DNA of 9,500 bases. Origin: a virus. Lineage: Duplodnaviria; Heunggongvirae; Uroviricota; Caudoviricetes. A program made the position numbers and the translations under genes. Location: IMG/VR virus record IMGVR_UViG_2585427755_000002, positions 1 through 9,500 of that record; one strand, 5' to 3'. Position 1 is the first letter of the stretch; every line of letters begins with the position of its first letter. The notes under the pieces were generated by a model that saw only the letters and a program-made list of their open reading frames with translations, had not been told where the DNA came from and made no database searches. Shown piece by piece: positions 4,025 through 4,717 of this stretch.

Positions 4025-4717
4025 ATGAACATAGGAAACCGAGTCAGACAACTTCGCCAAGCGAAGAACATGAAAATCGCCGATCTCGCTGAAGCGATAG
4101 GAGTAGATGCGGCGAACATCTCGCGCTTAGAAACGGGTAAGCAAAAACAATTTACCGAACAAACACTGAGTAATATTGCCAAGAGCTTAGGTGTTGATAT
4201 TGCTGATCTCTTTACCTCTGCCCACAAAAGTAATACTGTATATAAAAACAGTAATAATGAGGATGTTGCGCAGGTGAAGGATGTGTTCCGTATTGAAATG
4301 CTGGATATCAGTGCCAGTGCGGGAAATGGCCTTATCCAGGGCGGTGATGTCATTGATGTGATTCATGCCATCGAATACAGAACTGATAATGCTGTATCAA
4401 TGTTCGGCGGACGACCAGCCAATCACATCAAAGTTATCAACGTTCGTGGGGACAGTATGTGTCCAACCATTGAGCCAGGAGATCTCATCTTCGTTGATGT
4501 CAGCATCAATCAGTTTGATGGTGATGGTATATATGTCTTTGGTTTTGATGACAAAATATACGTTAAAAGACTTCAAATGATTCCTGACAAACTGCTGGTG
4601 ATTTCTGATAACCAGATTTACCGTGAATGGGGAATTACTAGCGAAAACGAACACCGATTCATGGTCTTTGGAAAGGTCTTAATCAGTCAGTCGCAAACCC
4701 TTAAGAGACATAATTAA
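4025..4717 (+). CDS. cI: CI-type phage repressor (N-terminal XRE HTH, C-terminal S24 LexA-like autopeptidase)
   Basis: HTH at the N-terminus (VRQLRQAKNMKIADLAEAIGVDAANISRLETGK). The C-terminal domain carries the catalytic Ser motif (VRGDSMCPTIEPGDLIFVD) and the Lys motif (DKIYVKRLQ), paralleling LexA GMSM...VKRL. There is no obvious Shine-Dalgarno before the ATG. Confidence 0.9.
   Translation: MNIGNRVRQLRQAKNMKIADLAEAIGVDAANISRLETGKQKQFTEQTLSNIAKSLGVDIADLFTSAHKSNTVYKNSNNEDVAQVKDVFRIEMLDISASAGNGLIQGGDVIDVIHAIEYRTDNAVSMFGGRPANHIKVINVRGDSMCPTIEPGDLIFVDVSINQFDGDGIYVFGFDDKIYVKRLQMIPDKLLVISDNQIYREWGITSENEHRFMVFGKVLISQSQTLKRHN
4234..4253. promoter_or_regulatory. Perfect LexA (SOS) box TACTGTATATAAAAACAGTA inside the cI linker coding region
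   Basis: CTGT (4236-4239), an 8-nt AT-only spacer, and ACAG (4248-4251) with TA flanks match the CTGT-N8-ACAG consensus. It was the only perfect match in my manual scan of the window. Here it encodes SNTVYKNSNN in the cI inter-domain linker. Confidence 0.5.

Follow-up and report, generated by a model that had tools for sequence, protein, structure and literature searches.

The question raised by this stretch of DNA is why a phage repressor gene should carry a complete operator for the LexA protein of its host within its own coding sequence. In the accepted model, cleavable cI repressors receive one SOS input, RecA-stimulated autocleavage. The stretch comprises the first 9,500 nucleotides (nt) of the virus record IMGVR_UViG_2585427755_000002 (hereafter the window) and belongs to a lambdoid prophage of the SfII type, of which it represents the immunity and early region. 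Positions 3600-4900 showed 99.3% identity to Shigella phage SfII, where the repressor gene is annotated as cI, and a protein identical to the cI product of the window is encoded on a Shigella flexneri chromosome. Two features are at the centre of this analysis:

4234..4253, no strand: LexA operator (SOS box) TACTGTATATAAAAACAGTA, of the high-affinity type and equal to the umuD and sbmC operators

4025..4717, plus strand: cI-type repressor gene, 230 amino acids (aa), with HTH_3 and Peptidase_S24 domains, the Ala99-Gly100 cleavage site and the Ser144/Lys181 dyad

A umuD-type LexA operator within the cI gene

The box TACTGTATATAAAAACAGTA occupied cI codons 70-77 (N-T-V-Y-K-N-S-N) in the linker between the HTH_3 and Peptidase_S24 domains and was the sole perfect CTGT-N8-ACAG in the 9.5-kb window. 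It was letter-for-letter identical to the umuD and sbmC operators of Escherichia coli K-12 (PMC3009722 Table 4; K-12 sequence). A LexA position weight matrix was built from 14 E. coli operators (PMC3009722 Table 4), with umuD and sbmC excluded. The box scored 26.8 bits with this matrix, compared to 8.7 bits for the second-best site in the window and 14.4-27.3 bits for true operators. None of 2000 dinucleotide shuffles reached this score (mean best score 8.6, maximum 19.5). The score and the umuD/sbmC identity bear out the original prediction that a textbook LexA operator lies in the cI linker. Its description as a perfect 20-bp palindrome was wrong, as the inverted repeat is confined to the 6-bp arms TACTGT/ACAGTA and the spacer ATATAAAA is asymmetric. 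Loose matches to CTGT-N8-ACAG with at most one mismatch were not enriched in the window (4 found versus 2.9 expected), and the significance of the site thus rests on the full 20-mer and its conservation. No earlier description of a LexA box inside cI was found in the open-access texts searched.

Conservation of the box at the DNA level

The orthologue set consisted of 337 genes, of which 202 were unique and 54 were representatives with less than 95% nucleotide identity. Its sources were phage records and viral contigs, together with a single genome for each species. The scan of viral contigs first gave near-identical copies only, and divergent queries were used to reach distant relatives. All statistics treat the 54 related lineages as independent, with no correction for phylogeny; this limit belongs with the objections collected further below.

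The motif CTGT-N8-(A/C)CAG was found at the same codon in 200 of the 202 unique orthologues, in more than 10 enterobacterial genera and down to about 50% protein identity. A site of 18.9-28.6 bits stood at the identical codon in 51 of the 54 representatives, and the second-best site of each gene remained below 10 bits. Among 43 distinct 20-mers, positions 3-6 and 16-18 were invariant and position 15 was A or C only, the remaining variation being confined to the spacer or the outermost bases. The change from ACAG to CCAG also occurs in the natural operators of recN, dinI and uvrB (PMC3009722 Table 4).

The cI linker was hypervariable in the protein alignment, except for the invariant residues Thr71, Val72 and Ser76. 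Far from varying freely across the box, the synonymous positions of these three residues were frozen: Thr71 was encoded by ACT in 51 of 51, Val72 by GTA in 49 of 53 and Ser76 by AGT in 51 of 52 cases. This corresponds to effective codon numbers of 1.0, 1.4 and 1.1, respectively, compared to usually 3-4 across 56 conserved four- or six-fold degenerate columns. Residues 73-75 varied while the DNA motif persisted, and residue 75 was either N/H/Y/D (xAC codons) or T/S/P (xCC codons). In relatives with a different linker the box was thus held while its surroundings varied freely, and the earlier claim that it is kept by selection and not by chance was confirmed. Based on these comparisons we regard it as almost certain that the box is a LexA operator under DNA-level selection. 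It lies in the flexible linker, a place at which the protein tolerates it.

The box was present in ST64B, Klebsiella phages, Eeyore, Fels-1, Cronobacter ENT47670 and Stx2a phages. Fels-1 and ENT47670 were the most distant carriers with about 50% protein identity, and the box was absent from the next tier (49% protein identity or less), represented by Yersinia 30.14, PhiR34_1, BTP1 and PHL101. The allele group was found in 1040 of 5426 complete E. coli genomes (about 19%), and box-bearing prophages also occurred in Shigella, Salmonella (ST64B, Fels-1), Klebsiella, Citrobacter and Pantoea.

The hosts are all Enterobacterales, whose LexA recognises this motif. In umuDC (PMC3009722) and in a synthetic promoter (PMC9074414), this 20-mer has been proven to act as an operator, and the umuD operator has been described as a late, high-dose operator (PMC5999292). 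The e14 repressor YmfK of K-12 was considered as a route to LexA chromatin immunoprecipitation (ChIP) data. It is not a member of the family and has no LexA-grade site, so that K-12 ChIP data do not apply to this locus.

A probable internal ribosome-binding site and a candidate nested reading frame

Downstream of the box, the window contains the elements of a predicted internal translation start:

4259..4263, plus strand: Shine-Dalgarno (SD) sequence GAGGA for an internal in-frame start, anti-SD pairing -6.4 kcal/mol

4274..4717, plus strand: candidate nested open reading frame from GTG (Val84) to the cI stop, 147 aa, S24 domain only; the start with the best SD

4283, plus strand: alternative nested start GTG (Val87), 144 aa, alignment column 87

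Column 87 was start-capable in 72% of the lineages (GTG 36, ATG 2, TTG 1), while the median for 17 further Val columns was about 13%. The 20 nt 5' of this column showed a median anti-SD pairing of -6.05 kcal/mol against a background median of -1.9 and a 5th percentile of -6.1. Of 52 box-bearing lineages, 51 had an in-frame start preceded by an SD in the 20 codons that follow the box, versus 6% of the other 20-codon windows in the same genes, and these values were 71% versus 4% when counted in the non-conserved linker alone. Glu and Lys codons in the SD window ended in G (GAGG/AAGG) in 83% of cases; elsewhere in the gene the share was 39%, and it was 28% for the linker 5' of the box (Fisher 1e-10 and 3e-9, respectively, not phylogeny-corrected). 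At least 8 different SD sequences were used across clades, with differing amino acids, and Fels-1 employs the rare Arg codons AGG AGA. Lineages without a start at column 87 had a GTG at column 95/96, which co-varied with the GAG codon supplying the SD (Fisher 8e-7). In Dryocola, Phaseolibacter and Yersinia 30.14, where the box has been lost, the SD-led start was missing as well. The pattern makes it probable that the internal SD-led in-frame start is a selected feature.

The predicted nested product of 144-147 aa (about 16 kDa) would begin with an arm of 12-15 residues, followed by the Ala-Gly site and the catalytic core, and would exceed the 131-aa autocleavage fragment by 13-16 aa. Its sequence showed 36% identity over 83 aa to UmuD (139 aa), with an E value of 6e-8.

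An mRNA helix was also predicted in this region, in which UCUUUACCUCUGC (4208-4222, a pyrimidine tract that is anti-SD-like and lies 5' of the box) pairs with GCGCAGGUGAAGGA (4268-4282, the internal start region). The 131-nt fold had -36 kcal/mol and z = -2.3 in the window. Support across the family was partial, with 31% of lineages in the top 10% of the null. Such a helix would, in the folding model, mask the internal start in the full-length mRNA and not in a short transcript.

Predicted promoters and the terminator of the cI gene

The following elements would define transcription of the full-length gene and of a unit nested in it:

4211..4216, plus strand: candidate -35 hexamer TTTACC (Phe63-Thr64 codons), predicted, 17 nt 5' of TACTGT

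4234..4239, plus strand: candidate -10 hexamer TACTGT, the left arm of the operator, predicted; predicted transcription start at about 4245-4247

3990..4018, plus strand: candidate PRM TTGCTT-17-TGTAAT, predicted; leaderless cI mRNA starting at or near the ATG at 4025

4737..4754, plus strand: intrinsic terminator closing the cI transcription unit (and the nested one), found by terminator scan and annotated in SfII

The umuD promoter of K-12 reads TTGATC-17-TACTGT, with TACTGT opening the box, followed by 19 nt to the ATG. The cI family reads TTTACx-17-TACTGT in the same arrangement, with scores of 6.4-8.5 bits (6.4 in the window) versus 6.7 bits for umuD. In 199 of 200 unique coding sequences the distance of this -35-like hexamer was the same (25 nt), with indels occurring solely 3' of the box. 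A synthetic 47-bp promoter of the form TTGACA-17-TACTGTATATAAAAACAGTA is a working SOS-inducible promoter (PMC9074414). An SOS-responsive internal promoter, as suggested in the original prediction, thus gains indirect support from the umuD-like -35/-10 geometry and from the conserved SD and in-frame start downstream. On this sequence evidence we judge the chances evenly balanced that the box gates a nested promoter.

The main ATG of cI lacked an SD in 53 of 54 lineages (median anti-SD pairing -1.8 kcal/mol), and the TGTAAT hexamer, whose end lies 7 nt 5' of this ATG, was conserved in the family. This suggests that the cI mRNA is a leaderless PRM transcript, as in lambda. In the alignment of relatives, the stem of the terminator had changes on both strands that preserve pairing.

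A possible SOS gene nested in cI

The order of elements (a -35-like hexamer, the operator with the -10, a 20-30-nt leader with the SD, GTG, the S24 domain, stop and terminator) is, as read from the sequence, the anatomy of an ordinary SOS gene, nested in cI. As the leading explanation we propose that TACTGTATATAAAAACAGTA serves both as an operator for host LexA and as the -10 of a weak promoter within cI (TTTACC, 17 nt, TACTGT). While LexA is present, this nested promoter would be shut, and it would open upon severe or persistent DNA damage. Since the umuD-type operator is a late, high-dose operator, nested expression would be expected with severe damage only. A short transcript from about 4246 would carry its own SD GAGGA and an in-frame GTG at 4274 or 4283, and would encode the C-terminal S24 domain of the repressor alone, with the size and architecture of UmuD. 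This DNA-binding-deficient half-repressor could pair with the full-length protein (subunit poisoning) and/or cleave it in trans, and would thereby make the switch to induction more decisive under severe damage. Kim and Little reportedly found in 1993 that intact molecules can be cleaved in trans by the C-terminal fragments of LexA and lambda CI. LexA on the box may additionally impede RNA polymerase arriving from the weak, leaderless PRM.

From the sequence and its conservation we infer LexA occupancy, promoter activity and the existence and action of the short protein at this locus. The model of a nested SOS gene as a whole is tentative, and in our estimation it falls just short of an even chance. 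Somewhat more doubt attaches to the statement that this class of cI encodes two proteins, a leaderless-translated full repressor and a LexA-gated, SD-led, self-encoded antirepressor that consists of the C-terminal domain (CTD) only. That the short product has an antirepressor function at all seems rather unlikely, if conceivable.

Several observations weigh against the nested unit. About 10 of the 54 lineages had GTA or GTT at column 87 and a weak SD, yet a strong box. The SD of the GTG at column 95/96 lies in protein-conserved codons, and the box-less PHL101 and BTP1 reached anti-SD pairings of -6.0 and -5.5 kcal/mol, as acidic linkers can mimic an SD. A generic sigma-70 scan of positions 3850-4850 on both strands called no promoter, and TACTGT is weak as a -10. 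With the -10 placed in the AT spacer and a -35 at 16-18 nt, the plus strand was barely above background. The -35-like hexamer is made of conserved Phe-Thr codons and the third base of Thr64 varies freely, so that its conservation is not attributable to promoter function. Expression of the ST64B repressor was roughly flat at gene level in 17 conditions (D23580/4-74 tables), with no evident rise upon SOS, at a resolution that does not separate 5' from 3' coverage within the gene. This repressor gene (STMMW_20241, 2098186-2098881) has its box at about 2098395-2098414.

A further objection comes from Fels-1, whose repressor FsoR was 51% identical to the cI protein of the window and whose box stood at the same codon with 22.5 bits. 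FsoR is cleaved upon mitomycin C treatment, and the non-cleavable lexA3(Ind-) does not prevent induction of the Fels-1 late operon (PMC3121763). Induction thus does not depend on the release of LexA, and the box could have no more than a modulatory or quantitative role. The second SOS input beyond CI autocleavage that had been predicted from the window thus falls as a requirement and could stand, if at all, as a modulation. C-terminally tagged FsoR gave 'cleavage products', in the plural, after mitomycin C in a study that does not mention the intragenic box (PMC3121763). This is compatible with an extra C-terminal species, which we take as a hint only.

Alternative explanations for the box

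The likeliest of the alternatives is a roadblock or attenuator, in which LexA bound about 210 bp into cI would stall RNA polymerase from the weak PRM and no promoter at the box would be needed. Repressor dosage would be low in the healthy cell and released upon LexA depletion, and a strong establishment promoter would push through. LexA pauses RNA polymerase in vitro, and high-affinity roadblocks let pass about 5% of the transcripts from weak promoters and are dislodged by strong ones (PMC4132739). An effective roadblock calls for an operator of just such very high affinity, PRM appears to be weak and leaderless, no canonical promoter was called at the box, and the inducibility of Fels-1 in the presence of lexA3 is consistent with this explanation. 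A roadblock leaves unexplained, however, the conserved SD and in-frame start and the fixed 17-nt spacing to TTTACx. Its logic is also awkward, since more repressor mRNA late in SOS opposes induction. Most cI transcripts would be wasted, and in ST64B good expression of the repressor was seen under every condition. We consider a roadblock unlikely, while noting that roadblock and nested promoter are not mutually exclusive and may coexist.

Much less probable are explanations in which the box is non-functional or is not a LexA site. It might be the relic of an ancient fusion of a helix-turn-helix (HTH) domain with an SOS-regulated umuD-like gene. The CTD indeed resembles UmuD in size and in fold family, and the operator equals that of umuD, but the synonymous sites of a relic would not stay frozen over a nucleotide divergence above 40%. 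A 6-bp hairpin of the arms is conceivable in the mRNA, and the predicted helix between the pyrimidine tract and the internal start described above was modestly enriched in the family. No compensatory changes between the box arms were found among the orthologues, which argues against a purely structural RNA element, and variation in the box tracked the LexA matrix, including the pair-breaking change from ACAG to CCAG. Selection for a protein motif NTVYKNS does not fit the changes at residues 73-75 under a constant DNA motif. An SD-like ribosome pause at the domain boundary predicts neither a start codon 6-10 nt downstream nor the covariation of SD and start.

An SOS-inducible antisense promoter, which the original prediction had also offered, would drive minus-strand transcription through the 5' half of cI and OR toward cro and silence cI by interference and antisense RNA. 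The promoter of the lambda OOP antisense RNA is LexA-repressed and provides a precedent, and the AT-rich spacer has -10-like hexamers on the minus strand too. However, with the -10 in the spacer, the minus-strand -35 was at background (median p 0.45; 6% below 0.1), no arrangement recurred across lineages, and the would-be -35 region coincides with the hypervariable part of the linker with its indels. The SD and start on the sense strand would remain unexplained, and we give this explanation hardly any credence.

The window itself encodes another potential ligand of the box:

370-696, minus strand: LexA-DNA-binding-domain protein, 108 aa, Pfam LexA_DNA_bind 2.9e-19, located between Dam and RusA

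This protein showed 44% identity to the N-terminal domain of E. coli LexA, has a short tail and no S24 domain, and retains the recognition-helix residues S39, N41, A42, A43, E45 and H46 and the wing R64-G65. By its sequence the paralogue could be able to bind CTGT half-sites. It was present in all SfII/mEp460/Stx2a_1447-type phages with this cI, where it might target the box and, for example, shut cI in lytic growth. It lacks, however, the LexA dimerisation domain, and many lambdoid phages of other, unrelated immunity types (SfV, SfIV, cdtI, Stx2c phages) carry it along with the Dam-RusA module. It was found within 5-6 kb in only about a third of the representative loci, and the complete ST64B, Klebsiella phage 1 LV-2017 and Eeyore genomes, all with a 22-23-bit box, gave no match to it. 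Being missing where the box is kept and tied to Dam-RusA, the paralogue is not the reason for the conservation of the box; the dependence on it that had been considered earlier finds no support, and it is highly improbable that the box is mainly its target. As a non-cleavable LexA mimic expressed from the lytic operon, the protein could re-repress SOS genes during phage growth.

Comparison with known systems

The proposed nested unit resembles umuDC and sbmC, with which it shares the identical 20-bp operator and a -35-like hexamer 17 nt 5' of TACTGT. The leader of umuD measures 19 nt to the start compared to about 20-30 nt in the nested unit. Like umuD, the nested unit would encode a member of the S24 family, about 140 aa long and with the cleavage site in an N-terminal arm, and the late, high-dose derepression of umuD would be expected for the cI box too. 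In contrast to umuDC, the cI unit is nested in frame in a repressor gene, its -35 and operator double as codons, it starts with GTG, and its promoter is a predicted one. The unit does not belong to the UmuD family, as there is no umuC-like gene, the terminator and OL follow directly after cI, and the similarity to UmuD is limited to the 83-aa segment given above.

LexA-controlled prophage antirepressors are exemplified by Tum of coliphage 186. The Gifsy antirepressors GfoA, GftA and GfhA resemble the proposed arrangement in that host LexA gates a product acting on the phage repressor, apart from RecA-stimulated autocleavage (PMC3121763). Their genes, however, are small, stand on their own and lie at a distance from the immunity region; the repressors they act on are non-cleavable, and they are required for induction, which lexA3 blocks (PMC3121763). 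The cI box unit, unlike these, would produce a candidate isoform of a cleavable repressor. With no separate gene, and with Fels-1 not blocked by lexA3, it falls outside the Gifsy/186 family, although the nested product may work like an antirepressor.

The Tn5 transposase inhibitor (Inh) and the repressor isoforms of phiC31 are examples of nested proteins, truncated at the N-terminus, that counteract their full-length form. They share with the cI isoform, which is predicted only, an internal in-frame start, a missing DNA-binding N-terminus and a retained oligomerisation domain. At the level of sequence and comparison, the cI gene has what characterises the Tn5 Inh type, an internal in-frame start with its own ribosome-binding site. 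To our knowledge, no nested truncated isoform has been reported for lambda-type cI repressors. In phage 434, Hex is a second protein from the repressor gene region that modulates RecA-mediated cleavage of the repressor (PMC3564112). Hex is read in an overlapping alternative frame from the PRM transcript and is not LexA-gated, whereas the cI nested product would be in frame with a LexA operator upstream. By analogy to Hex, the short product may instead be protective and compete for activated RecA.

CTXphi uses host LexA directly at its switch. Host LexA also binds phage DNA for lysogeny control in GIL01, together with gp7 (PMC4551915). LexA acts in these phages as the main repressor at intergenic promoters, whereas the cI locus has a canonical cI with its own operators and an intragenic LexA site. 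Transcription-factor sites in coding sequence can also be transcriptionally inert, such as those of E. coli PhoB (PMC10294691). For an inert site one would not expect synonymous positions to be held constant from genus to genus, as they are in the cI box.

The immunity region and other features of the window

The surroundings of cI are those of a lambdoid immunity region:

3667-3927, minus strand: cro, divergent from cI

3123-3674, minus strand: cII-like gene, also flanking cI

3942..4004, no strand: OR, operator repeats TTGC-N7-GCAA between cro and cI (repeat families D1, I2, I8)

4772..4808, no strand: OL, two copies of TTGCATATCTCGCAA, of TTGC-N7-GCAA type, 3' of the cI terminator (repeat family D1)

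Together with the divergent cro and the OR/OL repeats, the HTH and S24 domains with the Ser/Lys dyad and the Ala-Gly site identify the protein as a lambda-type CI. The Pfam domains extended over aa 7-62 (HTH_3, 1.2e-11) and aa 104-218 (Peptidase_S24, 6e-19), and A99, G100, S144 and K181 were invariant columns in the family alignment. An AlphaFold model from a 26-sequence alignment had a mean pLDDT (predicted local distance difference test) of 48.5 and is usable for domain boundaries only; the linker 64-85 was least confident, and the first strand spanned 87-93. OR and OL are about 800 bp apart, with cI and the LexA box between them, so that a repressor-mediated OL-OR loop would be far shorter than that of lambda. 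Near the 5' end of cI, the Gly4 codon (4034-4036) was GGA in 53 of 54 lineages, frozen like the codons of the box, and synonymous variation was also reduced at Arg11, Leu48 and other 5'-proximal codons. These codons may be constrained by leaderless initiation or by an operator or downstream element.

A gene of the Rha/antirepressor type follows cII (about 1-1027 of each locus, minus strand) in mEp460, Stx2a_1447 and PhiR63_1, which belong to the clade with 90% identity to the window. Its place is taken in the window and in SfII by a small hypothetical gene and an O-like gene, and this difference is a module exchange directly beside the conserved immunity region. The genes beyond are:

1837-2778, minus strand: O-like replication gene

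1358-1840, minus strand: PerC-family domain protein, 160 aa

693-1379, minus strand: phage Dam methyltransferase

The O-like gene contains at 2406-2469 a 15-bp tandem repeat CAGATTTTGACGGGT in 4.3 copies, which encodes a repetitive DPSKSDASKS stretch; the repeats are probably the iterons of the origin. The PerC-family and Dam genes are located between the replication gene and the LexA-like gene. Prophage PerC-like regulators can cross-talk with host virulence regulons.

In the ST64B locus, a weaker LexA-like site AACTGGGTTGACCACCAGCA of 12.3 bits was found at 2405-2424, about 200 bp 3' of the cI stop. The noncoding RNA STnc1310, which is induced by peroxide and nitric oxide, lies about 100 bp past this site, at about 2523-2596 in the presumed PL leader. 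The two might possibly form a further SOS link at PL of ST64B. STnc1310 was also considered as an intragenic transcript of cI; it maps about 330-400 bp 3' of the gene and hence outside of it.

Significance for prophage induction

Prophage induction controls the release of Shiga toxin, of serotype-converting phages and of Salmonella phages that carry effectors. The conservation of synonymous sites across many genera would mean that host LexA is read by these switches in a way that has not been described. If a nested product consisting of the CTD only is indeed made, it would represent a new design of antirepressor, derived from the repressor's own gene with its signals overlaid on codons, and would be a clear example of dual coding. 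The short form would make induction switch-like at high damage, and a nested SOS unit could explain differences in induction threshold among Stx phages. The lambda paradigm would then be incomplete for prophages in about 19% of complete E. coli genomes, including Stx2a-converting phages.

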